Shown piece by piece: positions 6,427 through 24,547 of a stretch of 36,284 bases of DNA. Under the pieces are notes generated by a model. The model ran no database searches. It was not told the DNA's origin and saw only the letters and a program-made list of their open reading frames with translations. Both the position numbers and the translations under genes were made by a program. Numbering within the stretch: the stretch's first letter is position 1; each line of letters begins with the position of its first letter. Source of the stretch: a virus (lineage: Duplodnaviria > Heunggongvirae > Uroviricota > Caudoviricetes); the IMG/VR virus record IMGVR_UViG_3300043399_000371, positions 1 to 36,284 of that record; one strand, written 5' to 3'.

Positions 6427-6457
6427 AACCCCATTGTACACGAAATACAATGGGGTT
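6427..6457 (-). terminator. Intrinsic terminator-like hairpin ending the late/lysis transcript
   Basis: 12-bp stem AACCCCATTGTA/TACAATGGGGTT, 7-nt loop, followed by TGTTTTTG on the minus strand. Confidence 0.65.
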
Positions 6458-6478: not shown

Positions 6479-7129
6479 CTATGCCATTTTTTGAACTGTT
6501 CTTACAAGTGGAGCATCATTCGGATGGTTCACAACTTCATGTAATTTATGTTTCGGAACTAGGGAAACTGCTTGCGATTCCCAACCCATATTTGAAGGAT
6601 GACCACCAACTCTTCGGGCATGATAATATCTTGTGTACGATGTACTTCTTTCCACATCACCAGCATGACCAGTTAATTCAACTTTTAAACCACTTTCTTC
6701 ATGTGCTTCTTTGATGGCATTTGCTCTTAGGTTTAGACCGGGATCAACTTTACCTTTGGGAAATGTTGCAGAATATCCACCAAATTCATTTGTGGGATGA
6801 ACAACCCAAACTCTACCATCGTCCTCATGTACAATAACACCTGTGGCTAATTTCTTTCCTGATGGATTATGCACTTCTGGTTCTTCAAAATTACCCTGAC
6901 CCTCAACTTTATTCCAATCATGATTTGGGTCATGTTCCCAGCTACCAAACTTTTTGCTTTCATTTTGAATGTTGTGGTTTGGTGTTGTTGTTGCTACCTC
7001 ATTAGGATTGTCCCATGTCGAATGATGAGTTGGTTGGTGCGGACTATAAATTTCTACTTTACGTCCATCCTCATCTTTTTTTGGATGATAGCTAATTTCT
7101 TCTTTTATGTATTGTTTAAAAGTTTTCAT
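6479..7129 (-). CDS. Nudix hydrolase with N-terminal capsid-targeting-like leader
   Basis: Nudix box FPKGKVDPGLNLRANAIKEAHEESGL; N-terminus MKTFKQYIKEE resembles the T4 internal-protein leader. Confidence 0.9.
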   Translation of the reverse strand: MKTFKQYIKEEISYHPKKDEDGRKVEIYSPHQPTHHSTWDNPNEVATTTPNHNIQNESKKFGSWEHDPNHDWNKVEGQGNFEEPEVHNPSGKKLATGVIVHEDDGRVWVVHPTNEFGGYSATFPKGKVDPGLNLRANAIKEAHEESGLKVELTGHAGDVERSTSYTRYYHARRVGGHPSNMGWESQAVSLVPKHKLHEVVNHPNDAPLVRTVQKMA

Positions 7130-7587
7130 TTGAATATTGTTGCTAGTGTGTTTAAGTTAACGTTACCAATGACCCAACCAAAACCAAGAGCGGCACCAAC
7201 CAGCATCCATTTATATTTGTCGAACTCTTTAAAGCTTTTACTTTCCTCGACTTCTTTCTTCAAGTTTTGGTCGATCAATTCTGCTTTAAGATCATCGATT
7301 TTCTTAGCCAAATGTGTTTCGACTTCATTCATTCTGTCGGTAAGTTCACGATTGACTGTTGTGATTCTGGAATGTATTTCTTTAACGTCTTCTTTCAAAT
7401 CTCTTTCCGCTATATCGTGTTGTTCGTGTTTTTGTTCATGTAGGGAAATCATTTTTACAAGATTGCTGTTTATTTCTTGTATTTTCTCAATAGATTCTGA
7501 TACTTTCTGCCAAAGCTTATCAGTCATCTGTAAATCTTTTTGTAATAACCCGATTTCCAACTTTAATTTTCCTATATCTTCAGTCAT
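7126..7587 (-). CDS. Coiled-coil protein with C-terminal hydrophobic segment (153 aa)
   Basis: Heptad-rich body; WMLVGAALGFGWVIG is TM-like; lies in the lysis block. Confidence 0.65.
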   Translation of the reverse strand: MTEDIGKLKLEIGLLQKDLQMTDKLWQKVSESIEKIQEINSNLVKMISLHEQKHEQHDIAERDLKEDVKEIHSRITTVNRELTDRMNEVETHLAKKIDDLKAELIDQNLKKEVEESKSFKEFDKYKWMLVGAALGFGWVIGNVNLNTLATIFK

Positions 7588-7599
7588 ACGATCCTCTTA

Positions 7600-7986
7600 T
7601 TATATTTCTCTTTCTTCTTCTTGTCTTGGTCTTCTTCCGAATTTATTTCTATAACCAAAATCATTATAATAAGAATCATCATACTCACGATGATATTGTG
7701 CGCCAACTATTTTTTCTTTGCCTCTCGACCATGCAGCTATACCCAACACAGCACCCATAGCTAAATGGAAAAGACCAGCACCTTGTAATGTAAGAGGTTG
7801 CCAAGCTTCAATATCAGCACCTTTTGTTCCGACATATGCTTTAAATATTGCCCAGATTATAGGAAAAACAATAAAATCAGCAGTACAAACAACTAAGTAC
7901 AACCATGCCATCGCAGGTCGCCACTTACGATTCATCCAGTCTTCTTGTTTTCTTGCGGATCTGCTTTTTTGTGGTTCGTCTGTCAT
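7600..7986 (-). CDS. Putative holin (3TM/GTA-holin-like)
   Basis: WRPAMAWLY...PIIW...FHLAMGAVLGIAAWSRGKEK; TM helices; adjacent to the endolysin. Confidence 0.7.
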   Translation of the reverse strand: MTDEPQKSRSARKQEDWMNRKWRPAMAWLYLVVCTADFIVFPIIWAIFKAYVGTKGADIEAWQPLTLQGAGLFHLAMGAVLGIAAWSRGKEKIVGAQYHREYDDSYYNDFGYRNKFGRRPRQEEEREI

Positions 7987-8597
7987 GAAAATAGTATCTT
8001 ATATGTTTTTTCGTACTTTGATATTCTATCTTCAAGACCATTATAACCACCATTGATTGCTCTTGTCAATCCTCTCAAATCATTACTGTCTGCAAATTTA
8101 TTTAGGTTATTAATTTCCCAGAACCAACAGGCAGAATGAATAGCACCATCAAAGGTAGTGAGATACTCAGGAAGATCATCTACATCAAGTTCGACATAAT
8201 CTGCAAACTTTTTGTAGTTGTTGTATCCAGTTAATTGGATAAGTCCTCGCCCACAATATTTCCAGCCATCACCACTTGCTTCGTCTCCATTGCCCATTCT
8301 ATTAGCATAAACTCTACTCGCTATAGCTTGTTGGTTATGAGCATATTTTTTAGCTAGTTCATCATTTGGAAAATATTTTGGAAAAACTCTGCGTAGACTT
8401 TCCCAACGATAGTTTAAATTTTCTTTTAGAAAAGCAAAATTACCAGATTCGTGGGCACATTGCGATATAAATGCAGAAACTCTTTCCAAACCATCAATTT
8501 CATAGTTTGGAAGAAAGTCATTTAATGAAGAACACCATTCATCAATATACTTGTTTGTTGGTAGTATTAATGCTAACTTTTCTGGTTTTATAATCAT
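7983..8597 (-). CDS. Endolysin, glycoside hydrolase family 19
   Basis: FISQCAHESG, YANRMGNG, YCGRGLIQLTG and INGGYNGLEDR motifs. Confidence 0.93.
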   Translation of the reverse strand: MIIKPEKLALILPTNKYIDEWCSSLNDFLPNYEIDGLERVSAFISQCAHESGNFAFLKENLNYRWESLRRVFPKYFPNDELAKKYAHNQQAIASRVYANRMGNGDEASGDGWKYCGRGLIQLTGYNNYKKFADYVELDVDDLPEYLTTFDGAIHSACWFWEINNLNKFADSNDLRGLTRAINGGYNGLEDRISKYEKTYKILFS

Positions 8598-8866
8598 TTT
8601 TTTACGCTTTCATAATTTGATTTCTGTTCGTTATACCATTGAACCCACAAATCAACTTTTGTTTGACATTCGTGGTATTTTGCATAATTTGTTGTCACTA
8701 CTTTAACAACTTCACTCAATTTTGTTTCACCGTCTTTAACCTTATCCAACTCTGGACATTTTTCGCCGATCTCTTTTGGATAATCAGGGAACTTAGGGAT
8801 GTCGTGTGAAAATAATGAACATCCTGTCAAAAAGAAACAAAATAGGAAAATAGATATGGTTTTCAT
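8594..8866 (-). CDS. Putative o-spanin (outer-membrane lipoprotein)
   Basis: Signal peptide with lipobox FLTGC; Pro-rich start and additional Cys; in the lysis cassette. Confidence 0.75.
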   Translation of the reverse strand: MKTISIFLFCFFLTGCSLFSHDIPKFPDYPKEIGEKCPELDKVKDGETKLSEVVKVVTTNYAKYHECQTKVDLWVQWYNEQKSNYESVKK

Positions 8867-9288
8867 TTGTTTGTTGCTGCCTCATTAAGAATATTGACCA
8901 CTTCTCCAACAACTTTACATTCTTTATCCATCTTCTCGGAGTTTTCAGCAATCTTTTGTTGTGTCTCTTGTTGCTTCTCTTTTATTTTTATGACTCTATC
9001 ACGATAAACATATTTAATCTTTGTATTTACTTTCTTGGCATTTTCTTCAACAACTTCAAGCTTGTGTTGCCATTCTTTTTCTCTTTCTTTGAACTCATTT
9101 ACAACTGCCATTGCTCCTTCGAAATAAAGACCAATAACAACAACAGATATACCAACATATCTGATTATTAATTTTTGTGGAATCATAGTGAAAAAGGATG
9201 CTCCAAATAATGATACACCACAAAATAAAAAGAGGTGTATTAGAAAAGATGGGATGAAAGTAAATACAAAAATTAGAAAGTCAATCAT
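8863..9288 (-). CDS. Putative i-spanin
   Basis: N-terminal TM segments, then coiled coil and a late Cys; ATGA overlap with the lipoprotein gene. Confidence 0.7.
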   Translation of the reverse strand: MIDFLIFVFTFIPSFLIHLFLFCGVSLFGASFFTMIPQKLIIRYVGISVVVIGLYFEGAMAVVNEFKEREKEWQHKLEVVEENAKKVNTKIKYVYRDRVIKIKEKQQETQQKIAENSEKMDKECKVVGEVVNILNEAATNK

Positions 9289-9455
9289 TTTGGTGCTGAC
9301 CTTCTAAAGAAATTTTTGAATGGAATGACTTTTCTTTTATTTTTCTTGTCAACTCCGGGTTCTGATTGATTTGGAAGATTAGGATTGGGAACACCAATTC
9401 CAGCAACTGCACCACCACCAACAGAATTAACAGGAACTTCTTCGTTTAGTTTCAT
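9285..9455 (-). CDS. Small protein (56 aa): MKLNEEVPVNSVGGGAVAGIGVPNPNLPNQSEPGVDKKNKRKVIPFKNFFRRSAPK; possible head-associated peptide
   Basis: Not in ORF track; exactly fills the gap with ATGA overlaps at both ends. Confidence 0.75.
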   Translation of the reverse strand: MKLNEEVPVNSVGGGAVAGIGVPNPNLPNQSEPGVDKKNKRKVIPFKNFFRRSAPK

Positions 9456-9841
9456 TTATATTGCCTCAATGTATCTGCTATATTCTCGTCTATTTTTATA
9501 TCTGATGAGAATATATCTCGACCACGTATACCTTTTATTTTCTCTGGCATAATATTGAGGAAGAGTAGATATGTTTTTAGGTACGAATAAAAATCCTCAT
9601 TCACATTAAAAAATAGCAATCTAGTTGCTACTTCTGGACCAAAAACATTACAGAGAACAACGAGATGATTAATGACTAATCTTTCACGCAATTCTCCATA
9701 ATTTTTATATCTAGTGAATAAACGGTTTATGTAGTTAAACCGTTTATTATCTTCTTCATATTCACTTAATATACAATTAGGTTTATCATATGCTTTTATG
9801 CTATACAATAAAACATTTTCTTCATTCAAATCATCAAACAT
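9452..9841 (-). CDS. Conserved T4-like hypothetical protein (129 aa)
   Basis: KRFNYINRLF...ELRERLVINHLVVLCNVFG pattern, familiar from T4-like cyanophage and freshwater phage genomes. Confidence 0.7.
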   Translation of the reverse strand: MFDDLNEENVLLYSIKAYDKPNCILSEYEEDNKRFNYINRLFTRYKNYGELRERLVINHLVVLCNVFGPEVATRLLFFNVNEDFYSYLKTYLLFLNIMPEKIKGIRGRDIFSSDIKIDENIADTLRQYK

Positions 9842-10274
9842 TTTCTAATTTATGTAAGTCCTCGTCCTCTCTCATAATTCTTTCTATACCTGCTTCATCA
9901 GTCAATTCGGCATAGAAATCATAAGAACCATCATCATTCAAATAATATAAGAGATACAAATAAAATATTTCTTCATCATCCTCAAATTGTGGCATATCAT
10001 ATTGATCATATACTTTGCCAAATTGATTCATCTCCAACACAACTTCATCACCTTCAGGATCAAGTTCGTAAAGTGCTGGAATATCCAAACCATGCATATT
10101 AAGCACTTTACGAACTTTTTGTACTCCAATAACTGGTGACAAAATTATATCGTTTAACTCATTTCCCATGCGAAAATTAATCTTTGCACGAACCTCTGGA
10201 TTATCGATTGAAATCGAATTATCTTTTGGTGTTTCGTGTTTAATTACCGCTTGACCAGTTTCAATATTGTGCAT
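9834..10274 (-). CDS. Acidic hypothetical protein (146 aa)
   Basis: Tightly packed ORF in the late block. Confidence 0.7.
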   Translation of the reverse strand: MHNIETGQAVIKHETPKDNSISIDNPEVRAKINFRMGNELNDIILSPVIGVQKVRKVLNMHGLDIPALYELDPEGDEVVLEMNQFGKVYDQYDMPQFEDDEEIFYLYLLYYLNDDGSYDFYAELTDEAGIERIMREDEDLHKLENV

Positions 10275-10276
10275 AA

Positions 10277-10804
10277 TTATGAATTAGGGAAAATTGTGTT
10301 TTCAGCATCTCTAGTCATAGAACCCATTGCTACTAATGTTTCGTATTGTGTTCTATTTGCTCTTCCACCCATTACAATAGTGAATACTGCATTTGAATTT
10401 GCTACTGCTGCTGTTGGAGTTGTAGCATAAACACCACCAGAATTTAGAGTAACACTTGTGATTCGTTTTGAACCATCAGTAGTGATACTTGCATTTGCTA
10501 CAGTATTTGCTGTTCCGCCACCAGTAAAGGTAACAAACACATTGCCATCAGGACTGTATGAATTTGTATTGGCTGAAATAGAAATGATTGGACCTGTTCC
10601 AACTTTTCTCAAATTCCATCCTGCGTGTTGTATTTTCTTCCCGTCACCAGTTGTAATACCTGCTTCGGTTGTATCTACACCAAATATTCCGTATGATGTA
10701 GTATTTCCAAATAGTGCTTGACCATTTGCAGAAACACCATGACCACCAGCATCTGCGGATTTTGGTGCGTTATTAGCTTGATCGTATGATCCCCATAAAG
10801 CCAT
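10277..10804 (-). CDS. Probable virion structural/decoration protein (MALWG family)
   Basis: MALWG N-terminus, HAGW and ETLVAM motifs, G/T/N/S-rich beta content; AGGAG SD and late promoter upstream. Confidence 0.7.
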   Translation of the reverse strand: MALWGSYDQANNAPKSADAGGHGVSANGQALFGNTTSYGIFGVDTTEAGITTGDGKKIQHAGWNLRKVGTGPIISISANTNSYSPDGNVFVTFTGGGTANTVANASITTDGSKRITSVTLNSGGVYATTPTAAVANSNAVFTIVMGGRANRTQYETLVAMGSMTRDAENTIFPNS

Positions 10805-10835
10805 TTCGTTCTCCTAAGAATTGGATTTTATTTTA

Positions 10836-10843
10836 GTATTTAG
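10836..10843 (-). promoter_or_regulatory. T4-like late promoter (CTAAATA)
   Basis: TAAATA at 10842-10837, about 33 nt upstream of the structural gene start. Confidence 0.65.
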
Positions 10844-10986
10844 GTTTTTACCAAAGTGTCTTTTTCGCTTATCTCAGGTTCTGGATCAAACTTGTCCTGA
10901 CCGTTGACTTTAACTTTTTTCTTTATAATGTCTTTGACAATTTGTTTCTTTCTTTCTTCTATTTCTTCTCTTGTAAGATTTTTCAT
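10840..10986 (-). CDS. Small charged protein (48 aa): MKNLTREEIEERKKQIVKDIIKKKVKVNGQDKFDPEPEISEKDTLVKT
   Basis: Not in ORF track; starts 2 nt after the HicA-like stop; its stop overlaps the late promoter. Confidence 0.6.
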   Translation of the reverse strand: MKNLTREEIEERKKQIVKDIIKKKVKVNGQDKFDPEPEISEKDTLVKT

Positions 10987-10988
10987 TT

Positions 10989-11270
10989 TCAGAAATCCCA
11001 ATATGGTAAATTTTTTTCTTCGTGGTGCGCTTTTATCGCAGTTCTTGTTCTTCTTAGAGCATCTGGTTTTATGTCTTTACCGTGATGATTCCAGCCAGTA
11101 GCAATAAAACCAGTTTCTTTATGCCTCCATTTAGGATGGTCGCCTTTTTCTGTAACAGGCTCATAACCAAGTGATTTTAACCACTCAATACCATCCTTGT
11201 GCTTCTTTCCGACAGCATTCCACTCTAACAAAGAATTTGAATTTTCTCTGAATAGTTTTAAATTAATCAT
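10989..11270 (-). CDS. HicA-like (dsRBD-fold) RNase with N-terminal leader
   Basis: IEWLKSLGYEPVTEKGDHPKWRH...NHHGKDIKPDALRR follows the HicA pattern L...G....R.KGSH....H....P.H.GKDL..GTL. Confidence 0.7.
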   Translation of the reverse strand: MINLKLFRENSNSLLEWNAVGKKHKDGIEWLKSLGYEPVTEKGDHPKWRHKETGFIATGWNHHGKDIKPDALRRTRTAIKAHHEEKNLPYWDF

Positions 11271-12076
11271 TTGTTGCTCTTCTCTGGGTGTTTATCGTAA
11301 TAAGCACCTAATGCCATTTTGATTCTTTCTTTCTTTGATTTGCCTTCAAATCTTGGATCAGCAGAATTTACAAAATCTGTTATCCACTCTGATGCTTCGG
11401 CGTCTCTTGAAATAACTTCATCTAATTGTTTCTGAAAAGACATTTCTTCAATTTTCTCACCAAGCTTTTCTTTCTTAATTCTCTTCAGATTTTCTAGATC
11501 ACTCATGGTATCTTTTCGTTTCAAATCTGCAAGCTTTAGTGGTGCTTCGCCTTTTTGCTTACGGAGATATGCTGGAATGTCTGCCTTTTGCACTTCTTCT
11601 TTCTGAAATTTTGAATTGTTTGATTTTTCTGCTGAAGAGTGATACCATTTCTTTTTATCACCATCGAAACGCATACCTTCTGCTTTTGCTTCATCTTTTT
11701 GTTTGAATGGTACTTTATGATAAATTTTTTCTGATGGTTGTGTGGTATGTTTTTGTTTTCTATTCCACTCTTCATCTTCTTTTGCGGTACGTTCCCAACC
11801 TTCATCGTCTTCTCGACCACGGGCACCACCAATACCACGATAAGGAACACCGCGACCAATATAACGCGATTCGTCCAATTCCGATTCTTCTTTCTGAATA
11901 GTTACACCTTTTGATGATGCAGCACTAATCTTTTTCTTGATCTTGCCTTGGCTTTGGTCCTGTGCAATCTTGATTTCTTTATTGAACTCTTCTTCAGTTG
12001 CCTCCTCGACCATCAATTCAGAAAGTGCTTTTAGCCTATTTTCTTTATATGATTCTACTAGTTTTGAAAATTTCAT
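11267..12076 (-). CDS. Highly charged head-associated/core-like protein with an internal DUF5710-like module
   Basis: KIYHKVPFKQKDEAKAEGMRFDGDKKKWY module; many (L/I/V)xE sites; C-terminal FEGKSKKERIKMALGAYY. Confidence 0.6.
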   Translation of the reverse strand: MKFSKLVESYKENRLKALSELMVEEATEEEFNKEIKIAQDQSQGKIKKKISAASSKGVTIQKEESELDESRYIGRGVPYRGIGGARGREDDEGWERTAKEDEEWNRKQKHTTQPSEKIYHKVPFKQKDEAKAEGMRFDGDKKKWYHSSAEKSNNSKFQKEEVQKADIPAYLRKQKGEAPLKLADLKRKDTMSDLENLKRIKKEKLGEKIEEMSFQKQLDEVISRDAEASEWITDFVNSADPRFEGKSKKERIKMALGAYYDKHPEKSNK

Positions 12077-12086
12077 TTGTTTGTCC

Positions 12087-12887
12087 TTATAAGTATGCGT
12101 TTGAAATTAAATAACCTTCTATTTGCCCACCAATCCTACTTGTTCCAGTTGTTGAAGATACTTGCCATTGAATATCTGTTTTTTCAAAATATGGGCGAGG
12201 AACAACTTTTAAAGAATTGTATGTACTGACAAATGGGAAAGTTAAAATTATATTAATGACTCCAGTATTAGTTTTCGTCCAAGATCTATATAATGCAGTC
12301 TGACTTCCTGTTTGATTTGTGTACCAATTCGATTGAGTTAAAAAGAATGTAAAACCAGCAGGAACCGTATATACTGTCATTTGACTCCTACCGAAACTTG
12401 CATCTGTTGGACTACCAATATAAGCAAGAGTAATAACTTTATCTAAACTTCCTGCTCTTATTTTTCCAACATTTTCTGGAGTCTGTGTAATATTCAGAGA
12501 GTTTATTCTTAAAAAATTATTTACGGTAGAAACACCAACTGTACCATTTGTCAAAACAACAGTCTCAACTATTTGAGCGTAATTAGCATCAAGACCAACT
12601 ATTCGAATACTAACATTTGTATCTGATGCACTATCACTCCAAACAAGAACTTTTTGTGCTGATGGAAAATAAACATATTCCCCATTTTCCCATGCTGGAA
12701 CGAATGTTGTACCAACCGCAGAATTATAGCCGGAAATACTCAGCCCAGTAACACCCGGAACTTTCCCCATTGCAACTTGAAGTGCAAAATCACCACTTTG
12801 TAATGTGGTATAATCTGGCATAACAACTTCATAAATGTCTCTATTGATATGTAATAGAGAACCAGTATTTTTACTATACTGTGACAA
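12087..12887 (-). CDS. Probable structural protein (beta-rich, 266 aa; TTG start uncertain)
   Basis: IVGLDANY...ETVVL, FLRIN and QMTVYTVPAG motifs seen in phage virion proteins; in the late block. Confidence 0.6.
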   Translation of the reverse strand: MSQYSKNTGSLLHINRDIYEVVMPDYTTLQSGDFALQVAMGKVPGVTGLSISGYNSAVGTTFVPAWENGEYVYFPSAQKVLVWSDSASDTNVSIRIVGLDANYAQIVETVVLTNGTVGVSTVNNFLRINSLNITQTPENVGKIRAGSLDKVITLAYIGSPTDASFGRSQMTVYTVPAGFTFFLTQSNWYTNQTGSQTALYRSWTKTNTGVINIILTFPFVSTYNSLKVVPRPYFEKTDIQWQVSSTTGTSRIGGQIEGYLISNAYL

Positions 12888-13265
12888 TTAGCATCTCCAA
12901 CGTCTTAGGGCTTTATTAATTCTTGAATCTGGATCGTTTGCAGTTTTAGCAGAAGTCAAACGTCTCTTCATACCAGACATTCTGCTACAGAAAGCTTTTC
13001 TACGATCTGCACGTTTTCCTTTTGGATTTTTCTCGGTAACAGCAGTTTGTAATTTTGAGCCGGGATTTTCTCTCTTATAAGCATTGACTGCTGCCTGACT
13101 CAAACCATCAGTATTATCTTGACGATTAACTTTTTGCCAATCTTCTTTTACTGGAACACAATTTGGCACCTCTTTACCATTTTTCTTCTTTGTGCCATAC
13201 TGTTCATATCCTTTCCAACAAGGGTCTTTTTCTTTCTCTTCTAAAAACTCTAAAAACGATTTCAT
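12888..13265 (-). CDS. Head-associated protein, DUF6321-like, with capsid-targeting-like leader
   Basis: MKSFLEFLEE leader; PCWKGY...VPNCV module; RENPGSKLQTAVT...RRKAFCSRM...SRINKALRRWRC. Confidence 0.7.
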   Translation of the reverse strand: MKSFLEFLEEKEKDPCWKGYEQYGTKKKNGKEVPNCVPVKEDWQKVNRQDNTDGLSQAAVNAYKRENPGSKLQTAVTEKNPKGKRADRRKAFCSRMSGMKRRLTSAKTANDPDSRINKALRRWRC

Positions 13266-14806
13266 ATTGTCCTCTTTGATTTAAAAGAACTCAATGAAAT
13301 CCCCTTCTTCTTGAGTTCGTCTTCTTTTTGTGCAGACATAGTATTCAACATCTCACCACCATCGCCAATATTTTCTTCTAGTGGTGGGTCTTTCTTTATT
13401 CTGCTTCCCTTTTTGTCTGCTGGTCTTGCAAGATTCTCACCAGATGCTGCCATAGACATTCCGGGTTCGATTCCCTTATCAATCGACTCTTTTATTTTTT
13501 TCCTGAAGTCTGTGAGTGTTTTGATTGGACGTTCGCTGTTTGGGTCTTTTTCCCCTTTGAAGGTCTTTTGTAGTAACGTTTCTTGGGCGGCAGAGGCATT
13601 GTTGAGATTTCTGTCGATTCCTTCGGTGAGATAACCACTTCTTCTTGTTTCTTCTCTTGTTCCGGTTCTTGTTTCTTGAACCAACTTATAAGCTTTGTCC
13701 ATAATGCTTTCATTTTGTTTTTCCTTTTTAATATCATCATTTGTTATTGTTGATGATTTTAGTGGTATATCAGTTTTTACGATTCCCTTTCCTAAAGTTA
13801 TGGAATCGGTTTTATCAGAAAGATCGTAATTAGATTTAGTTTCATTACCTGTCAATGATGTCAATAATTGTTTTAGTTCGTCGGTTGTATCGGCATTATA
13901 TGTAACAGATACTGCCTCTGAAAGAAAATCTGCAAAGGTATTATTCAAAGTTTCTTTTATTTTCTCTTTCTCTTTTGGCAATTCTGTCAATTTATCTTGA
14001 AGAGCAACATGAGTTACTTCATCTTTTGTGCCATAACGATTTTTGCCGTGATATAGAAGTCCTTTTTGTTTTGCTTCTTTTGCGGCATTTGAACTTGAAT
14101 GTGGTTGTTGTTTAGCCAATGATGGTTTGCGACTAATTTTTGTTAGTTCACTATCGATCCATTCTTTTGCTTTAGGTGATGCGTGTGGTCTGGATAAAAA
14201 TTCTGCATGAACTTGTTTGTGTTGTTTTAACAGATCCTTTTCGGATTTGATTTCTTCTGGTGTTGCAGTTGAAAGATCTTTTGAGTTATCATATTCGATA
14301 TAGTTGTTACCGAACATTTTGGCGTATCTTGAACGGGCGGACTGAACCTTTTGCCATTTCTTTCTTCTGATGTTCTCATCAGTAACCCTACCACCATTCT
14401 TTGCTCTTTCTATGTTTCGTTTTTGTGATGTTTTATCGTCAACATGAACAAAAGCCATAGATGTGTCATAACCAAGATTCTCTAGATGGTCTTTTATACC
14501 TTTTACTTTTTCATGATCCTCACCAGAACCACTAATCAATAATCCATTACGACCAAGAATTGCTAACTTGCTTTTCAATTCTGCTGGTGATTGAACTTTT
14601 TTGTGTTGTTGACTGTGAATATCTTTGAGATGATTGTGAAGATTGTCTAGATCAACCTCTACCAATCCATGATCTTTTAGTGTATGCTTCATGTACCAAT
14701 CTTTACCAGAACCTGTACCACCAACGGAAAAGATTGCTTTGTGGGTTCCATAATCTAAGACATTCTCTTTAAGAAAATGTGAGAAACTTTCATTTATTGA
14801 ATTCAT
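13262..14806 (-). CDS. Zeta-toxin/AAA_33-like P-loop kinase domain followed by a long charged tail (514 aa)
   Basis: AIFSVGGTGSGKD Walker A; LENLGYDTSMAFV; lid SQKRNIERAKNGGRV. Confidence 0.7.
   Translation of the reverse strand: MNSINESFSHFLKENVLDYGTHKAIFSVGGTGSGKDWYMKHTLKDHGLVEVDLDNLHNHLKDIHSQQHKKVQSPAELKSKLAILGRNGLLISGSGEDHEKVKGIKDHLENLGYDTSMAFVHVDDKTSQKRNIERAKNGGRVTDENIRRKKWQKVQSARSRYAKMFGNNYIEYDNSKDLSTATPEEIKSEKDLLKQHKQVHAEFLSRPHASPKAKEWIDSELTKISRKPSLAKQQPHSSSNAAKEAKQKGLLYHGKNRYGTKDEVTHVALQDKLTELPKEKEKIKETLNNTFADFLSEAVSVTYNADTTDELKQLLTSLTGNETKSNYDLSDKTDSITLGKGIVKTDIPLKSSTITNDDIKKEKQNESIMDKAYKLVQETRTGTREETRRSGYLTEGIDRNLNNASAAQETLLQKTFKGEKDPNSERPIKTLTDFRKKIKESIDKGIEPGMSMAASGENLARPADKKGSRIKKDPPLEENIGDGGEMLNTMSAQKEDELKKKGISLSSFKSKRTI
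13492..13713 (-). CDS. Candidate overprinted small protein (73 aa, MKALWTKLISWFKK...) in an alternative frame of 13262..14806
   Basis: AAGGAA SD 7 nt upstream of the ATG at 13713; amphipathic N-terminal helix, then an acidic and a basic segment. Confidence 0.45.
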   Translation of the reverse strand: MKALWTKLISWFKKQEPEQEKKQEEVVISPKESTEISTMPLPPKKRYYKRPSKGKKTQTANVQSKHSQTSGKK

Positions 14807-14837
14807 TAACGCTACCTCTACAGTAGAAACTTTATAT

Positions 14838-14851
14838 TATTTAGTATTTAT
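14838..14851 (-). promoter_or_regulatory. Tandem T4-like late promoter motifs (ATAAATA, CTAAATA) for the leftward head/lysis block
   Basis: Minus-strand CATAAATACTAAATA upstream of the GAGGT SD and ATG at 14806. Confidence 0.65.
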
Positions 14852-14857
14852 GGTTTT

Positions 14858-14865
14858 TATAAATA
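14858..14865 (+). promoter_or_regulatory. Perfect T4 late promoter TATAAATA for the ART-kinase operon
   Basis: Exact consensus 30 nt upstream of the ATG at 14896. Confidence 0.75.
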
Positions 14866-14895
14866 TAGAATAAAACATTTTTTCGGGATTGTACA

Positions 14896-17235
14896 ATGAA
14901 AGAACCTATTAGCCTAAGAAATTTCATCAAAAATATCAAGAAGCAAAACAAACCAAAAGCAACATATAGCGAAAAACCAAAGAAGCAAAACAATGAATAT
15001 GTCTCTGGTTATGGATCTATTGGCAACAGAAAAGATATTGGTGACTTTGTAGAACTAGAAAAACCAACAGACAACAATTATGTTTCTGGATATGGTTCAA
15101 TCGGCAATAGAAAAGATATTGATATTCAACCAAAGAAAAAGCTAAAAGAGTGGATATATGATGAGGGTAAACCTGTAGATCTAGACAAACCTATTGAGAG
15201 AAAAGTTGACAGTTCTGGATACCCAAGTTTTGCGGAAAGACAAAATTATGATGACAAAAAACACGAAGAAACATATGATAAATTAGAAGCACACCACCAT
15301 CCAGATTATGATACACAAAACGAGAAAAGTCGAAACCAACATTTCCAAGATTATGTTGGTGACAGTTCAGGCTTAAACGGCAAACTTATAGCTTTACATG
15401 GTTCTGGTGCGGATTCATATAAAGAGGCAGATGATGATTCCCATGTTTCTAATATGGATCGGGCTTTAGTTGAACATGAAAATCCTGCCCCAGAAGATCA
15501 TTATGTTTATACTGGTCTAGGACGAGGAATTAGTGCTCTTGATGCTTATAAAAATGGTAAAGGCATCCACTTTCCAGCATACACTTCTACAAGTACAGAT
15601 CCTGATGTAGCCCAAGGTTTTGCAAAACAAGGATTAGAAAAACCAATATCAGAAATTTTAAGAATAAAAGTTCCAAAAGGATCAAGACACGGTGTATTTC
15701 TTGGTTCAACTTCAGCTTTAAGTAGTGAAAAGGAAATGATTCTACATCGTAATAGACACGTTCGTTTTGTCGGTGAACCAAGAAGAAATGGTAATCATCT
15801 AGTATATGATACTGAACTTGTTGATCACCCAGAACAGGACAATCATTTAGAGAAACACAGAAAAGAAATTGAAACAGATAAGGAACCATTAACAGTATTG
15901 AAAAACAGAAATGCGAGTGAAGAAGAAATCCATAATGCATACACAAATGGTTCAAAGAAAGTTAAATTAAAAGCATTAACACACGATAAAGTTGGAAAGA
16001 AAACATTATCTACCGCGATAGATGATGGTGATCCAGAACTATTGAAAAAAGCACTACAATCAAGAAATGTCGATTCTGATCACATTCATCAGGTCATTGA
16101 TAGTAAACATATATCTGAACCAGAAAAAGTAGATGCCATAACTGATCACTCCAATGATTTAGACGATTCACATATAGACAAAATAATAGAAAAACATGGT
16201 GATGATGAAGATATGATGTCAGCTTTGGCATCTTCGAAAAATCTAAAGTCACACCATATTCATCATTTCTTAGACCATCCGAATTTTTATATGAATCAGT
16301 TGATTAGGCAACATCCTAATTTAAGTGATGAACACATTCATAAAATGATAGATTCAGACAAGTATACTGGAAATACTATGTACGGTCTACATAATATGGG
16401 TAAACTGAATGCGGAACATAATAAAAAAATAATTGAAAAATATCCAGACCATCATGTTAAACAAGACATTATTGCTAGAGGAAAATTGGATGATGATACC
16501 ATTGATAATATTATCAAAAATGGTACAAATGAAGATCACTACAATTTAAGTGAAAATAATAGTCTTAAAACACACCATGTCAGAGATCTCATACAAAAAG
16601 CAATAGATACTAAAAATGATGATATGATTTCAAAATTATCAACATCATCAAAACTAGATTCTGATTCCTTACACAAATTATACGCTCATGCCGAAAAAAA
16701 GGGAAGTTCGTATATGAAAAGAGGAGTTCTTAGAAATAGAAATGCCTCACATGGTTTATTGATGAAAGCTTTGGATGATGAAAATTCTGGTGTACGTAGA
16801 ATGGCTATACAACACGAAAATGCAACACCCGAACACATAAACAAAGCTTTGGATGACGAGGATCACACAGTTAGATCAGAAGCAGCTAAACACCATAATG
16901 CAAATGAAGAAAATTTAGAAAAAGCATTACGTGATAAACACACTAATGTTGCAGAAACTGCCGCCTCAAATCCAAATCTTACATATAAAAATATTCATAC
17001 TGCATTAGACCATGAAGATCCATACGTAAGAATGGGTGCTATAATGTCTGGTGATGATAAAGTTCATTCTGATCATTTAGATAGAGCAATAAAAGACCCA
17101 GACTATGGAGTCAGAAGAACAGCATCTAGACATCCAAATATAGAAAATCATCATCTAGAAGTATTAGAACATGACGAACATCCAAATATATCAGAGTATG
17201 CGAAACAAAGATTAGGAAGGGACAACGAAGAATGA
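14896..17235 (+). CDS. ADP-ribosyltransferase (VIP2/C2/Alt-like ExE class) fused to HEAT/LRV-like helical repeats
   Basis: HYVYTG (beta1), FPAYTSTSTD (STS), ILRIKVPKG and SSEKEMILHRN (ExE); C-terminal ~24-aa repeats of the type H.NA..E....AL.D....VR..A. Confidence 0.82.
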   Translation: MKEPISLRNFIKNIKKQNKPKATYSEKPKKQNNEYVSGYGSIGNRKDIGDFVELEKPTDNNYVSGYGSIGNRKDIDIQPKKKLKEWIYDEGKPVDLDKPIERKVDSSGYPSFAERQNYDDKKHEETYDKLEAHHHPDYDTQNEKSRNQHFQDYVGDSSGLNGKLIALHGSGADSYKEADDDSHVSNMDRALVEHENPAPEDHYVYTGLGRGISALDAYKNGKGIHFPAYTSTSTDPDVAQGFAKQGLEKPISEILRIKVPKGSRHGVFLGSTSALSSEKEMILHRNRHVRFVGEPRRNGNHLVYDTELVDHPEQDNHLEKHRKEIETDKEPLTVLKNRNASEEEIHNAYTNGSKKVKLKALTHDKVGKKTLSTAIDDGDPELLKKALQSRNVDSDHIHQVIDSKHISEPEKVDAITDHSNDLDDSHIDKIIEKHGDDEDMMSALASSKNLKSHHIHHFLDHPNFYMNQLIRQHPNLSDEHIHKMIDSDKYTGNTMYGLHNMGKLNAEHNKKIIEKYPDHHVKQDIIARGKLDDDTIDNIIKNGTNEDHYNLSENNSLKTHHVRDLIQKAIDTKNDDMISKLSTSSKLDSDSLHKLYAHAEKKGSSYMKRGVLRNRNASHGLLMKALDDENSGVRRMAIQHENATPEHINKALDDEDHTVRSEAAKHHNANEENLEKALRDKHTNVAETAASNPNLTYKNIHTALDHEDPYVRMGAIMSGDDKVHSDHLDRAIKDPDYGVRRTASRHPNIENHHLEVLEHDEHPNISEYAKQRLGRDNEE
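14998..15120 (+). repeat. Two 42-bp copies encoding identical YVSGYGSIGNRKDI (14998-15039, 15079-15120)
   Basis: Direct comparison shows 6 synonymous and 0 non-synonymous differences. Confidence 0.9.
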
Positions 17236-18008
17236 TTAATTTTAAACAATTAAAATCAATTATAAAAGAAAGTAACAACACCAAAGACGGTGAAGGTACT
17301 GTTAAAGATATAGATAAATGGACAGAAGAACCAGATACACAGTATGGTTCTAATCGTGGTGGTGTTCACTATGATGAAAATGGTGATAAACATTATGTAA
17401 AGTTTTATCATAATCCACAACAAGCAAGAACAGAAGTAGCGGCAGCAAGAGTTCATGAGATGCTTGGTGTTAATACAAATAAACCATTTTTAGTTAGAAA
17501 GAATGGGGAAGTTGGTGTTGCATCAAAATGGAATTATGATCTTGAAAGAAAGAGTCCAAGTCATTTTGATACTCTCGATCATGAACAAGCAAAACACATT
17601 GCTCGTATCCATCATGCAGGAGTTCTTACAAAGAATTGGGATGCTGTTGGTCTTGAACATGACAACATCACATTCCATAAAAAAACTGGTGAACCATATT
17701 CAGTAGACCAAGGTGGAACAATGAACTTCAGGGCGCAAGGTGGTCCAAAAGATTATGGTGATGATGTTAGTGAAGTACATTCATTTAGAAATCCAGATAA
17801 CTATCAAGCACATCATGTTTTTGATGGTAATTTTAGCAGACACCCTGATGTTGAAAGATCAGAACTTGACAAAGTAAAAGCACTCAAGTATGATGACGTT
17901 CATCGTGCGTTTACTGATGCTGGACTTCATGACGCACATAAGAAAGCGAAAACTCTATGGAATCGTAGGAGTAATTTATTGAAACATTATGGTGAAGGGG
18001 AAGAATAA
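17232..18008 (+). CDS. Atypical protein-kinase-fold enzyme (HipA/PI3K-PI4K-like) with capsid-targeting-like leader
   Basis: Gly loop QYGSNRGG; HYVKF (Lys); ARTEVAA (helix C Glu); KNWDAVGLEHDN catalytic loop; SVDQGG (DFG equivalent). Confidence 0.78.
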   Translation: MINFKQLKSIIKESNNTKDGEGTVKDIDKWTEEPDTQYGSNRGGVHYDENGDKHYVKFYHNPQQARTEVAAARVHEMLGVNTNKPFLVRKNGEVGVASKWNYDLERKSPSHFDTLDHEQAKHIARIHHAGVLTKNWDAVGLEHDNITFHKKTGEPYSVDQGGTMNFRAQGGPKDYGDDVSEVHSFRNPDNYQAHHVFDGNFSRHPDVERSELDKVKALKYDDVHRAFTDAGLHDAHKKAKTLWNRRSNLLKHYGEGEE

Positions 18009-18010
18009 AT

Positions 18011-18328
18011 ATGTGGATTTGTCTTAATAATGCGTTTTTTAGTATCATTGAAGATGTTGATAACCCAAAAAACCTTCTTGTAAGGGCTAGGGACGAAAAT
18101 AGCATCGAAAATGTTTTTCGTGATGTGACTGTAAAGAAAACCCCCCACCGTGATTATCTTTATCGAACTTCTATTAGGCGAGAAGTAGTAGCAGAGAAAA
18201 TTAAAGAAAGTCTGATGAATATCAATTATGACAATTTTAAAGACTCTGTTGACGATAAGGAACTACATGATGCTTATGCTCGTTTTTGGTATGTGATGTA
18301 CGATTACCAACACAAGCTAAATCGTTAA
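18011..18328 (+). CDS. Conserved hypothetical protein (105 aa); candidate immunity/partner protein
   Basis: MWI...FFSI...LLVRAR...DYLYR...INYDNFK...HDAY pattern; starts 2 nt after the kinase stop. Confidence 0.7.
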   Translation: MWICLNNAFFSIIEDVDNPKNLLVRARDENSIENVFRDVTVKKTPHRDYLYRTSIRREVVAEKIKESLMNINYDNFKDSVDDKELHDAYARFWYVMYDYQHKLNR

Positions 18329-18330
18329 AC

Positions 18331-18358
18331 AAAAAGCCCGGTTTTATCCGGGCTTTTT
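18331..18358. terminator. Bidirectional intrinsic terminator
   Basis: AAAAAGCCCGG-TTTTAT-CCGGGCTTTTT between convergent genes. Confidence 0.9.
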
Positions 18359-18805
18359 TCATTTATAGTTACCAACGAAGTCAGAACATATTCCAAAAGG
18401 TTTCTCTTTAGTAACATATTCTTTCGTCCAAATACTATCTGGCATCACAAGAATACAAGTTCTCCCAACCTTCTGTTTACCCGGATAAGCCCAGATAAAT
18501 CCTTTACTAGTCATTGTATAATCATCGTTATTATGCCAGAAATAGTTCAAGGTTGTTTTTGTCATCAATTCTAGTGCCTGAACATTCTTACAATGAATCC
18601 ATAGATGTTCTTGTCTCTGACCTAACCAATCCAGACTAATTTCATATTGTCCGTAATCGTGACCCAATAGTACGTGTTCACCAAATTTCCAGAGATCTAC
18701 CTCAACATGATATTTCTTATCAATGGCATGATCAATATAGTCTGGAGCATTTTCTCTAGCAGAATTTGGTCCGTATAGATTTCCTCTGTGTGAAATTAAA
18801 AGCAT
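18359..18805 (-). CDS. Glycerophosphodiester phosphodiesterase-like (PLC-like) protein
   Basis: ISHRGN...EN...VEVD...LGHD...WIHCKN...GICSD GDPD motifs. Confidence 0.8.
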   Translation of the reverse strand: MLLISHRGNLYGPNSARENAPDYIDHAIDKKYHVEVDLWKFGEHVLLGHDYGQYEISLDWLGQRQEHLWIHCKNVQALELMTKTTLNYFWHNNDDYTMTSKGFIWAYPGKQKVGRTCILVMPDSIWTKEYVTKEKPFGICSDFVGNYK

Positions 18806-19521
18806 TATTTGTCTACCTCAATATATTCACCTTTTGGGGTGTGTTGCAGTTTCTTTCGGATAATGAACTCTTCCCAAGGCAACCCAAGTTCACGAATCCA
18901 TTGCTCAGACATTACGTGTGGGCATAGCAAATTTGTTTTCTTATAAATTGGTTCTAGGAAACAAGCAATTTTAGAAAACATAATCACGCTAAACATATTG
19001 CCAGCCTGAATCATATCACCAGTTCCCATTTGCATATGGTTTCTATGGGCTAGTGTATAGAATTTGTTTGCTTGAAAGTTTGGAAATGGTTGTTCAAAAA
19101 TCATATCTGGTCGCATTCTGAAAACAAAATCATAGACTGTTCCTGTTTTAGCAGAATAATTTTCCATGAGTTGAATACCAGCATTCAACTTGTAAAACAT
19201 GGATAGAATGTTTTTTGGTCGGTGTGCAAAATTACCAAAAGTTTTTCCTCTCTCTTCGAATTGTGCATTATAATTATTCCAACTTTCGACAACAATTTCT
19301 TTTGGAAAATAGTGTCGAACTAGATCATCAATATCAACTTTTGGTGTTTCGTCATACACGCCCGATACAGTATTCTTATCACTTGGAACCCACCATCCTT
19401 CATCATCCCAAGTATGAATAAAGATATCTGGTTTATACCCATCAATAATTGTTTGTTTAAAATTTGGAAAGACATCTCTCCAGCATCTAAAATGTCCGGT
19501 CAATACAACAGCAATCTTCAT
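18805..19521 (-). CDS. Putative glycosyltransferase-like protein, paralog 1
   Basis: MKIAVVLTGHFRCW...DIFIHTW...VFRMRPD; sugar-cluster context. Confidence 0.6.
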   Translation of the reverse strand: MKIAVVLTGHFRCWRDVFPNFKQTIIDGYKPDIFIHTWDDEGWWVPSDKNTVSGVYDETPKVDIDDLVRHYFPKEIVVESWNNYNAQFEERGKTFGNFAHRPKNILSMFYKLNAGIQLMENYSAKTGTVYDFVFRMRPDMIFEQPFPNFQANKFYTLAHRNHMQMGTGDMIQAGNMFSVIMFSKIACFLEPIYKKTNLLCPHVMSEQWIRELGLPWEEFIIRKKLQHTPKGEYIEVDK

Positions 19522-20189
19522 TAATAGTATTCCTTAATATTGTTTTTTCTTACCACACAATCCATCATCTTATTTTTTTGTACATTCAATTTATTGTAAT
19601 TTAAAGCATTAAGGAGTATTCTGTGTGGTGAGTCCACATGACTATCTTCAAATATAGGATTAAAAAATTCCTCATACATGAAAGAATAAATATCTTTCAT
19701 ATTATTTGGGTTCGTGATTATTATACAATCATTTGGATGAACATTTCCAGAATCGACAACAACATCTTTATCACCCAATACAGGAATATCAAATCCTGCA
19801 TACATCATATCACATCTAGTCTTTATTGCCAAATCATACCCATCTAGATTAACAACATTAACAATGGTGTTCATCTTTTCTATTTGAGAAAAGCTACTAG
19901 ATAATTGTGCAAATTTTGGATTAACGTGTTTAAATGCTTCGGATATTCTTGGGCGAATATCAAGTCTTTTGAGATTGAATCCATTGAATTGTTCTTTCAA
20001 ATATTCTTGATTTATGAACTCGTCCTTATTGTCATTTATGCGACCCTGAATAGCTGGGTGATGTCCATATCTGTAATAATCAACAGAAACAAATAAATCA
20101 ACATCGTGATTTTTAAATGTTTCTGTGAAATTGTTTTTACAGAAATCCCATGTCCTAATGTTGCCGATTAGAAATATGGCTAATTTCAT
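19521..20189 (-). CDS. Putative glycosyltransferase-like protein, paralog 2
   Basis: MKLAIFLIGNIRTW...DLFVSV...AIKTRCD. Confidence 0.6.
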   Translation of the reverse strand: MKLAIFLIGNIRTWDFCKNNFTETFKNHDVDLFVSVDYYRYGHHPAIQGRINDNKDEFINQEYLKEQFNGFNLKRLDIRPRISEAFKHVNPKFAQLSSSFSQIEKMNTIVNVVNLDGYDLAIKTRCDMMYAGFDIPVLGDKDVVVDSGNVHPNDCIIITNPNNMKDIYSFMYEEFFNPIFEDSHVDSPHRILLNALNYNKLNVQKNKMMDCVVRKNNIKEYY

Positions 20190-21549: not shown

Positions 21550-21553
21550 ATTA

Positions 21554-24545: not shown

Positions 24546-24547
24546 TA

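Follow-up and report, generated by a model that had tools for sequence, protein, structure and literature searches.

Unrelated late proteins of a marine T4-like phage share a candidate capsid-targeting leader of the T4 internal-protein type

The locus and its transcription units

We analysed the first 36 kb of a phage genome, a stretch of 36,284 nucleotides (IMG/VR record IMGVR_UViG_3300043399_000371, positions 1 to 36,284; hereafter the window), with a focus on positions 6479..18328. The genome is a single contig of 168,163 bp with direct terminal repeats and is rated 100% complete. The locus encodes a Nudix hydrolase, a HicA-domain protein, a zeta-like P-loop kinase, an ADP-ribosyltransferase (ART) termed ART1 and an atypical protein kinase (p258), together with DUF6321 and DUF5710 proteins, a lysis block and others (Table 1); coordinates are those of the window unless marked as genome positions. 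Several of these unrelated proteins start with a leader resembling the capsid-targeting sequence (CTS) of the internal proteins IPI, IPII and IPIII of phage T4. We consider it probable that this is a late island of a marine T4-like phage, whose proteins would be loaded into the prohead by a T4-type CTS, cut and injected into the next host.

The phage encodes T4-type replication genes (gp43 polymerase, gp41 helicase, gp61 primase, UvsX, clamp loader and RegA), a T4-type head module (gp20 portal, gp21-type protease, gp22 scaffold and gp23 capsid protein) and a gp55-like late sigma factor. In a profile scan of the genome, the protease matched Peptidase_S77 (E 8.9e-37) and the scaffold T4_CASP (E 5.9e-65), and the capsid protein shares 62–64% identity with its counterparts in cyanomyophages and in Pelagibacter phage HTVC008M. 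By these genes and this capsid identity, the phage is a marine member of the T4 superfamily. A megablast search of the region against cultured phages returned no near-identical DNA, and tblastn of ART1 against cultured phages gave no match.

Two divergent units start in an 89-bp gap (14807–14895) which contains TATAAATA at 14858–14865 on the plus strand and CATAAATA at 14852–14845 on the minus strand, while a further CTAAATA (10843–10837, minus strand) lies inside the leftward unit. The TAAATA late-promoter motifs which an original prediction, made from the letters of the window alone, had placed at 14838–14865 and 10837–10842 are therefore present where it located them. Across the genome we counted 12 copies of the heptamer ATAAATA on the plus strand and 43 on the minus strand, in keeping with the direction of the genes. 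Copies stand 5–40 nt ahead of structural genes, among them those for scaffold, tail tube and baseplate, and 26–39 nt upstream of the zeta unit, ART1 and three further units outside the window which are described below (p220, GP88_588 and p124/ART2). The presumed early region (138–168 kb) holds just two copies, both within open reading frames (ORFs). This distribution would fit late expression of the leader genes together with the head genes. Sigma-70-type promoters were not more frequent than in shuffled sequence (51 vs 50.5), hence these sites say nothing on early transcription. One perfect 12/12 sigma-70 consensus (TTGACA, 18 nt, TATAAT) lies at 8040–8069 on the minus strand, inside the endolysin gene and 54 nt upstream of the holin-like gene.

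Each unit ends in a terminator-like hairpin, the left one overlapping a sigma-70-like site for the primase gene. Judged by these signals, the locus is a self-contained pair of divergent late units bounded by two putative terminators, of which the leftward unit includes lysis genes besides leader genes.

A T4-type leader at the start of unrelated proteins

The CTS of IPI–III was described by Mullaney and Black in 1996, as cited in PMC9026906 and PMC13326640. In the T4 record, the leader reads MKTYQEFIAE in IPII and IPIII and MKTFKEF...ITE in IPI; Alt begins MELITE, and NudE and lysozyme are without such a leader. Amber-suppressor work on the T4 leader, as described in part of PMC9026906, indicates that residues 4 and 7 are the main determinants of targeting and residues 8 and 10 those of processing, with Asp at position 10 blocking processing while leaving targeting intact.

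We sought a strict motif built on these positions (F/Y4, F/Y7, I/L/V/T8, E10) at offsets 0–4 of the 260 ORFs in the genome. Seven N-termini carry it, against 0.27 expected from the internal rate (9 in 43,053 positions), an enrichment of about 26-fold. Three of the carriers lie in the window (Nudix, zeta-like kinase and DUF6321), and four lie outside it: p220, GP88_588, a second ART-like protein (ART2) and the GNAT-like p124 (Table 1). The remaining 253 ORFs, which have the same codon bias, show none. No replication protein of the genome has the strict motif; a loose version fits 21 N-termini (7.4 expected), including RegA, the endolysin and others.

Furthermore, we scored all 49,553 positions of the proteome with a position matrix trained on the first ten residues after Met of 116 foreign p258 homologues, which were left unfiltered to avoid circularity. 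The same seven leaders took the top seven ranks (scores 14.8–21.2), followed at rank eight by an internal site of the ribonucleotide reductase (RNR) small subunit (14.3). This provides the genome-wide scan that had been proposed with the original prediction, and more than half of the leaders it recovers (four of seven) lie beyond the window. Six of the seven have (I/L)-x-E at positions 8–10. Synonymous codons differ among the leaders, thus their likeness appears to be maintained at the protein level. As the conserved positions are those which T4 genetics ties to targeting and cleavage, the leader can be read as a putative capsid address. The leader family is real and statistically solid, and most likely represents the known T4 head-loading tag on an expanded, accessory set of enzymes.

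The original prediction listed similar leaders, ending in an (L/I)xE site, on five toxin-like enzymes and on the DUF6321 protein. All the quoted genes and N-terminal peptides are present, and the likeness to the T4 leaders MKTYQEFIAE and MKTFKEF is confirmed by the T4 record. The leader is strong for three of the six listed proteins (Nudix, zeta-like kinase and DUF6321), which match at T4 positions 4, 7, 8 and 10 and end in the predicted site. For p258 and ART1 it is supported through their families only, ART1 having N in place of the cleavage glutamate, and the N-terminus of the HicA protein (4.6, rank 192 of 49,553) is not distinguishable from chance. The window thus has fewer members, and less toxin content, than had been proposed.

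The idea that the leader is a copy of a scaffold repeat was dropped for this genome, no gp22 position being among the 40 best matrix scores. A complex prediction of gp22 (30-row alignment) with Nudix residues 1–40 scored 0.00 and, run without controls, is uninformative either way. Pfam and PHROG scans of the mature parts named no internal-protein family that would link them to IPI, IPII or IPIII.

Table 1. Features of the late island and leader genes elsewhere in the genome. Scores are those of the leader matrix; positions are window coordinates except where marked as genome.
Feature	Position	Strand	N-terminus (score)	Description
Terminator-like hairpin	6427..6457	-		Intrinsic type, 13-pair stem and T run; ends leftward late unit before primase gene
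Nudix hydrolase	6479..7129	-	MKTFKQYIKE (21.2, highest in genome)	216 aa; ~80-aa linker behind leader; NUDIX domain residues 93-208 (Pfam E 4.8e-12)
Lysis block	7126..9288	-		DUF7201 coiled-coil, holin-like, GH19-type endolysin, lipoprotein, membrane protein (Pfam and PHROG)
p175	10277..10804	-	No leader (-8.5)	Conserved late protein with its own CTAAATA (10843-10837)
HicA-domain protein	10989..11270	-	MINLKLFRENSNSLLE (4.6)	93 aa; HicA_toxin 33.4 bits, passes Pfam cut-off
DUF5710-domain protein	11267..12076	-	No leader (-1.8)	269 aa; Pfam E 8.9e-10; charged, low complexity
p266	12087..12887	-		Likely true start ATG 12821; BLASTP E 5e-11 to S-SCSM1 gp031
DUF6321 protein	12888..13265	-	MKSFLEFLEE (16.5)	125 aa; Pfam E 2.2e-14
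Zeta-like P-loop kinase	13262..14806	-	..SFSHFLKE, residues 7-14 (14.8)	514 aa; Pfam Zeta_toxin 26.4 bits (cut-off 22.3), AAA_33; Walker A GGTGSGKD
Divergent late-promoter region	14807..14895	.		One heptamer copy per direction
ART1	14896..17235	+	(MKEP)ISLRNFIKN (6.0)	779 aa; ADPrib_exo_Tox E 3.7e-15 (56.2 bits), domain 130-290; HEAT repeats C-terminal
p258, atypical protein kinase	17232..18008	+	MINFKQLKSIIKE (8.9)	Start overlaps ART1 stop by four bases
p105	18011..18328	+	No leader (-1.0)	Last gene of rightward unit; no family above thresholds
Terminator-like hairpin	18331..18358	+		Intrinsic type, 11-pair stem, 6 GC pairs, T run; ends rightward unit after p105
p220 (ORFan)	genome 117162-117824		MLSFKKFIFE	
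GP88_588	genome 128421-130187		MLSFKTFLKE	588 aa, GP88 domain
ART2 (second ART-like protein)	genome 135562-136608		MKSFKQYTKE	
p124 (GNAT-like)	genome 136605-136979		MKSFISFILE	Acetyltransf_1 21.5 bits (cut-off 20.7)

Leader conservation in protein families and metagenomes

The leader recurs in the families of two window proteins whose own N-termini score weakly, being kept by hundreds of metagenomic relatives in front of a variable linker. Among 120 clusters of the p258 family, F4 is found in 74, F/Y7 in 78 and E10 in 67, and the strict motif (offsets 0–6) in 51, compared with 2 of 25,594 internal positions. The family consensus is M-K-S/T-F-K-Q-F-L/I-K-E, and the spacing between the leader and a G-S/T-N motif varies from 9 to 57 residues. 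Since the family carries this consensus, the start of p258 in the window is, by sequence comparison, a decayed copy of a family-wide leader.

For the ART domain, the representative library holds 388 relatives; leader counts were made on the 117 relatives shorter than 700 aa among the 149 listed. A core of F4, F7 and a hydrophobic residue at position 8 occurs in 44 of these 117 (1.5 expected). E10 is present in only half of the 44 (n = 22; K 8, N 3, D 3, others 8), compared with 56 of 63 in the p258 family. ART1 fits this glutamate-less class and would be targeted but uncut, because N replaces E10 and Asp at this position in T4 blocks processing but not targeting. An (I/L)-x-E-W/F junction also precedes the ART domain in 25 of the 117 relatives (~7 expected), corresponding to an LKE/W junction at residues 83–86 of ART1.

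Between the leader and the ART domain, residues 30–80 of ART1 (window 14980–15130) contain two tandem YVSGYGSIGNRKDI motifs, and residues 15–50 of ART2 contain a short motif, P-x-[IV]-LSWDSS-x-AEIR, in two tandem copies. Twin motifs are found at the same place in many ART relatives (..FASIGxxxD.., ..GxHS..), with a loose pattern matching 32 of the 117 small relatives.

A DNA pattern for a single leader variant, MKxFKQYxKE, matched 100 times in 92 IMG/VR loci, some of which overlap as views of one contig. Every match starts at an ATG that lies 0–42 codons from an upstream in-frame stop. The leader opens 52 different complete proteins, which a crude similarity cut sorts into about 31 groups, and some matches occur two or three in a row, ~900 nt apart. 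Pfam searches with 30 of the 31 group representatives named four (DUF6267, PAP2, DUF6321 and a weak WW). Nine large matching contigs were examined; three of these encode an S77 protease and one a gp43-type polymerase. The scan of related phages that the original prediction had suggested was thus borne out in the p258 and ART families and in IMG/VR loci, and much less so in two complete relatives of the phage, which have few strong leaders (see below).

Identity of the encoded proteins

Of six domain calls in the original prediction, Pfam upheld five (Nudix, HicA_toxin, DUF6321, Zeta_toxin/AAA_33 and ADPrib_exo_Tox), the exception being a 'HipA-like' kinase, here p258.

The closest PDB sequences to ART1 are the toxins Vis and ExoT. 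ART2 scores 21.4 bits for ADPrib_exo_Tox, under the cut-off of 23.4; an alignment of 98 sequences, ART1 and ART2 among them, shows conserved STS and ExE motifs (columns T-S-T-S and E-x-E). In ARTs of the R-S-ExE (C3/VIP2/Alt) type the first motif is expected as Y-R-G. Here it reads V-Y-[ST]-G, with S/T in 90 of the 98 sequences and no conserved Arg column seen. Neither protein has detectable similarity to T4 Alt (best BLASTP E 0.18), and a word-index homologue search with the N-terminal region of ART1 returned the query only. The ART1 domain also has relatives among giant proteins (1254–2377 aa) in which it is matched 5–10 separate times, i.e. in tandem arrays (P0123–P0135 and others).

p258 has no match in Pfam (including HipA), NCBIfam or PDB sequences. 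Its AlphaFold model, built from a 40-sequence alignment, has a protein-kinase-like fold (pLDDT 93.6), for which Foldseek ranked Helicobacter pylori CtkA best (E 1.3e-6), followed by PI3K/PI4K, CotH and HopBF1. The invariant residues G39, S40, N41, G43, K57, E68, N135, D137, N145, D159 and G161 fit a glycine loop, Lys, Glu, catalytic loop and DxG. According to this model p258 is a CtkA/PI3K-like kinase, and as Pfam gives no HipA match, membership of the HipA/CtkA group is at the fold level only, where 'HipA-like' is a fair description. In Pseudomonas phage Jeremy, a p258-type kinase and an ADPrib_exo_Tox domain are joined in one protein of 1213 aa, and p258-type kinases occur under genes labelled ADP-ribosyltransferase in four more cultured phages (Dolphis, fHe-Yen8-01 and ST4 among them). 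The cargo of the present phage consists of single-domain genes, with only ART1 having a second region (HEAT).

The zeta-like kinase is closest among PDB sequences to adenylate kinases (E 0.013), not to zeta or PezT toxins, and its gene neighbours are DUF6321 and ART1, not an epsilon-type antitoxin. The Atlas clusters nearest to it consist of kinases from viruses only, often with a cytidylyltransferase-like domain in the same protein. Its homologue in two complete relatives of the phage, G010 and G011, is a fusion of 756–810 aa which starts with a leader and a GRMNPxTxGH nucleotidyltransferase (NMNAT-like). Residues 4–514 of the window protein align with 203–755 of the G010 fusion, the window leader matching the interdomain linker DLIFEDLLTE. 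Capture of a zeta toxin is therefore unjustified as an explanation; the kinase descends from a nucleotidyltransferase-kinase fusion. We also discarded a role in an NAD-salvage pair here, as the genome has no CTP_transf_like (NMNAT-like) domain. With this origin and the background score of the HicA leader, the description of the locus as five captured toxin-like enzymes was overstated.

A second leader-like site, NNTFADFLSE/AVSV, lies at residues ~287–300 of the kinase (score 11.6, rank 9 of 49,553); cleavage there may separate the kinase half from a charged C-terminal half. Taken with the linker origin of the kinase N-terminus, this site suggests that leader motifs may double as protease sites between modules. 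Relatives of the protein in IMG/VR were not found by single-protein search, and it is absent from four large leader-bearing contigs.

A word-index search for HicA homologues returned the query only. No HicB antitoxin was recognised beside the gene, where the upstream neighbour is DUF5710 and a 48-aa downstream ORF lay outside the scan. Homologues of the DUF6321 protein begin MKSFKTFIAE in G010 and MKSFKQFVNE in G011. The N-terminus of p175 is homologous to gp135 of HTVC008M and gp277 of phage S-SCSM1 (labelled tail fiber protein and virion protein). The genes for p220 and GP88_588 sit within an array of 24 tRNA genes.

Related phages

The scaffold protein gp22 has 183 relatives in IMG/VR. The complete genomes G010 and G011 have gp22 proteins ~62% identical to that of the present phage and share 98 and 118 of its 260 ORFs, respectively (BLASTP, E up to 1e-5). 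Both keep a backbone of the island (kinase fusion, DUF6321, p175, p146, DUF7207, DUF7201 and the adjoining primase), with the endolysin and small lysis genes at the island in G011 and the endolysin elsewhere in G010. Neither relative encodes Nudix, HicA, DUF5710, p266, ART1, p258, p105, p220, GP88_588, ART2 or p124. As only the kinase and DUF6321 of the cargo set are kept in these relatives, the enzyme cargo is, judged by gene content, an accessory, lineage-specific expansion.

Mass spectrometry of CsCl-purified virions of S-SCSM1, a cyanomyophage in culture, detected 45 proteins, and NMNAT is named there as a non-structural enzyme repeatedly seen in cyanophage virion proteomes (part of PMC9602691). 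The S-SCSM1 NMNAT gene begins MKSFLQFLKE and lies in a run of five 'virion protein' genes, with homologues of p175 and DUF7207, a holin-like gene, primase and RNR downstream. By this gene order, the NMNAT block occupies the same genomic position as the island in the window. The products gp029 (DUF6321) and gp031 (a p266 homologue) are also labelled 'virion protein'; the labels of ORFs 29–31 are taken from the GenBank record, the supplement not marking which ORFs were detected.

In HTVC008M, a gene run at 103767–109011 (L098) comprises a 352-aa ORF starting MLSFTGYSNLSE, a 410-aa ORF, a 170-aa ORF, a kinase starting MIPFILKE that is homologous to the zeta-like kinase of the window, and a 'cytidyltransferase' starting MKTLKELL.

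Neighbouring genes

Two ORFs lie between the portal and protease genes (genome 53754–54796), in the gap where T4 carries small prohead-core genes. They start MNIINLLIE.. (with a very basic C-terminus) and MKTLDQIKTQLNE.., and both have low leader-matrix scores, yet their N-terminal stretch closes with (L/I)-x-E, as does that of gp21 itself (MKLITE).

Beside the late island, three PHROG 13607 paralogues (18805–19521, 19521–20189 and 20887–21549) lie amid methyltransferase-like, HAD-hydrolase fusion and glycosyltransferase-like genes, and the region 18805–25387 may be a sugar or DNA-modification cluster. A homing-endonuclease-like gene (501–1268, plus strand) adjoins the RNR small subunit gene and is the sole plus-strand gene of the RNR region.

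Interpretation and alternative explanations

If the leader acts as it does in T4, it would bind the assembling scaffold core and load the proteins into the prohead, where the gp21-type protease would cut after the leader glutamate (E10). The mature proteins would then stay among the packaged DNA in the head and enter the next host with it. ART1 would be targeted with its leader uncut, and is perhaps cut at the LKE/W junction (residue 85). Judged by domain family, host proteins would be ADP-ribosylated by the ARTs, phosphorylated by the CtkA-like kinase and acetylated by the GNAT-like protein straight after entry, and the Nudix protein would hydrolyse ADP-ribose, NAD-type nucleotides or caps.

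Several observations weigh against delivery of this kind. Taken alone, the N-termini of p258, ART1, HicA and DUF5710 score within the N-terminal background, and the internal RNR site (14.3) and the N-terminus of an early-region ORF (11.5) demonstrate that matrix scores of ~11–14 can be false. ART2 has T, not I/L/V, at position 8. Strong leaders number seven here but no more than one or two in each of the relatives G010 and G011 (19.5 and 10.9; 17.3). The DUF6321 domain occurs in small podophage records and the S-SCSM1 DUF6321 protein has no leader, so the domain is not dependent on the tag. In S-SCSM1, gp030 begins MKTFKQFMSE yet is labelled 'hypothetical protein', not 'virion protein'. The other five of the nine large metagenomic contigs, which are fragments 39–63% complete, show neither S77 nor Gp23; all but G001 were also scanned for a gp43-type polymerase and lack it.

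An explanation other than a capsid address would be a generic amphipathic start, produced by AT-rich 5' codons or translation initiation, or some other signal, with the enzymes acting in the late cytoplasm. The genome has 36% GC and many of its ORFs start MK..., the loose motif exceeds its expectation on proteins such as RegA and endolysin, and the five contigs above are without a T4 hallmark in the part covered. However, codon composition would act equally on the 253 ORFs without the strict motif, its enrichment at N-termini falls on the residues linked to targeting and cleavage in T4, synonymous codons vary from leader to leader, and a leader-bearing enzyme, the S-SCSM1 NMNAT, is reported in purified virions (part of PMC9602691). 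We regard this explanation as improbable. Slightly more credible, though still unlikely, is that the leader does target the prohead and is cut, but that the cargo serves in the head or late cell, in DNA condensation, assembly or nucleotide housekeeping, rather than as an injected payload. DUF6321 and the lysine/glutamate-rich tails of DUF5710 and the C-terminal half of the zeta-like protein resemble charged internal or DNA-associated proteins, descent of the kinase from an NMNAT-like fusion is a metabolic pairing, and for the virion NMNAT of S-SCSM1 its authors leave undecided whether it is carried or a contaminant (part of PMC9602691). Against this, a head filled with DNA offers no obvious substrate to ARTs, a protein-kinase-like enzyme or a GNAT-like protein; T4 Alt and IPI enter the new host by injection and act there (parts of PMC5512222 and PMC3012670); and a cargo that is accessory and differs between close relatives has the pattern of arms-race genes.

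A narrower question is whether every gene of the island belongs to the set. HicA and DUF5710 are, on balance, likely to be ordinary late or moron genes without a capsid address, which would leave a window arsenal of three to five proteins, not six or seven. Their leader scores are at background, no homologues were found that show a family-level leader, and both are absent from G010 and G011. This is tempered by their position between leader genes of one late unit, with overlapping stops and starts, and by the HicA N-terminus, which has L4, F7 and an LLE/W junction resembling the LKE/W of ART1.

Delivery of leader-tagged proteins with the phage DNA is thus the reading we favour. More tentatively, and as a possibility rather than a probability, the CTS may be a conserved, sequence-readable label across the entire T4 superfamily, marine phages included, which this phage would have expanded into a modular, injected arsenal of individually tagged enzymes (two ARTs, a CtkA-like kinase, a P-loop kinase, a GNAT and a Nudix) that would be the polyvalent-protein repertoire in piecemeal form. 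It would comprise two processing classes, one with a cleavable glutamate and one of uncleavable, ART-type leaders that keep the tag.

Were the leader to work as in T4, a head-carried set of proteins that acts before transcription could be read directly from a genome or metagenomic contig. Hundreds of unannotated marine phage ORFs would become candidate factors for host takeover or anti-defence in the first minutes of infection, given that the scan for one leader variant alone yielded about 31 protein groups. It would also explain the NMNAT in purified cyanophage particles, and the tag would offer a handle for packaging assays and cargo engineering in T4-like phages of hosts other than E. coli.

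Comparison with known systems

A CTS with variable cargo has already been published for T-even phages (parts of PMC3012670 and PMC9026906), and Rao and Black describe the T-even internal proteins as diverse defence proteins with only the CTS in common (part of PMC3012670). Iyer et al. (2017) predicted that the virion delivers ARTs, kinases, GNATs and zeta-like kinases as parts of polyvalent or MuF-fused proteins (part of PMC5512222), and Iyer et al. (2022) that myoviruses package ARTs and Nudix proteins in the head; the latter also pointed out that nudE genes adjoin virion lysozyme genes (part of PMC9503650). Among the papers listed by our full-text literature search, we saw none that ties the CTS to T4-like phages of marine origin or to the enzyme families found here; PMC3037559 does not treat internal proteins. 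The suggestion that the present set is broader than Alt and IPI of T4 holds in that the cargo is mostly enzymes, while the principle itself, and the packaging of ARTs and Nudix proteins, had been published or predicted in these sources.

In comparison with polyvalent and MuF-fused proteins, the families predicted to be delivered by the virion are the same (ARTs, protein kinases, GNATs, zeta-like kinases and Nudix). Those systems, however, are domain strings or fusions to MuF or portal, and polyvalent proteins have 2–15 effector domains per polypeptide, whereas the window cargo consists of separate genes, each with a short tag that would be clipped off. Like T4 Alt, ART1 is a large ART of a T4-like phage that would be packaged and injected, with a possible protease site before the catalytic domain. 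The leaders differ, being MELITE in Alt, a glutamate-less CTS variant in ART1 (which also has HEAT repeats) and an IP-type leader in ART2.

The S-SCSM1 NMNAT is likewise a leader-bearing enzyme whose gene lies in a block with holin, primase and RNR. The window kinase has its homologue in the kinase half of the NMNAT-like/kinase fusions of relatives, and the present phage is without the NMNAT-like domain; the part of PMC9602691 considered here does not tie presence in the virion to the leader.

A close parallel is with T4 IPI–III. The cargo differs, being mostly enzymes of 124–779 aa where those of T4 are small basic inhibitor proteins; there is no sequence relationship between them, and the present proteins, which are predicted head cargo, belong to a marine clade. 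Both systems have in common a leader of ten residues, aromatic at positions 4 and 7 and with (I/L)-x-E at 8–10, a gp21-type protease and gp22 scaffold, late promoter motifs and a cargo that varies between relatives. The genomic setting is also shared, as in T4 ipII, ipIII, e and nudE lie side by side and ipI adjoins the tRNA genes, and the leader genes of this marine phage are likewise found near lysozyme and nudix genes and within a tRNA cluster.

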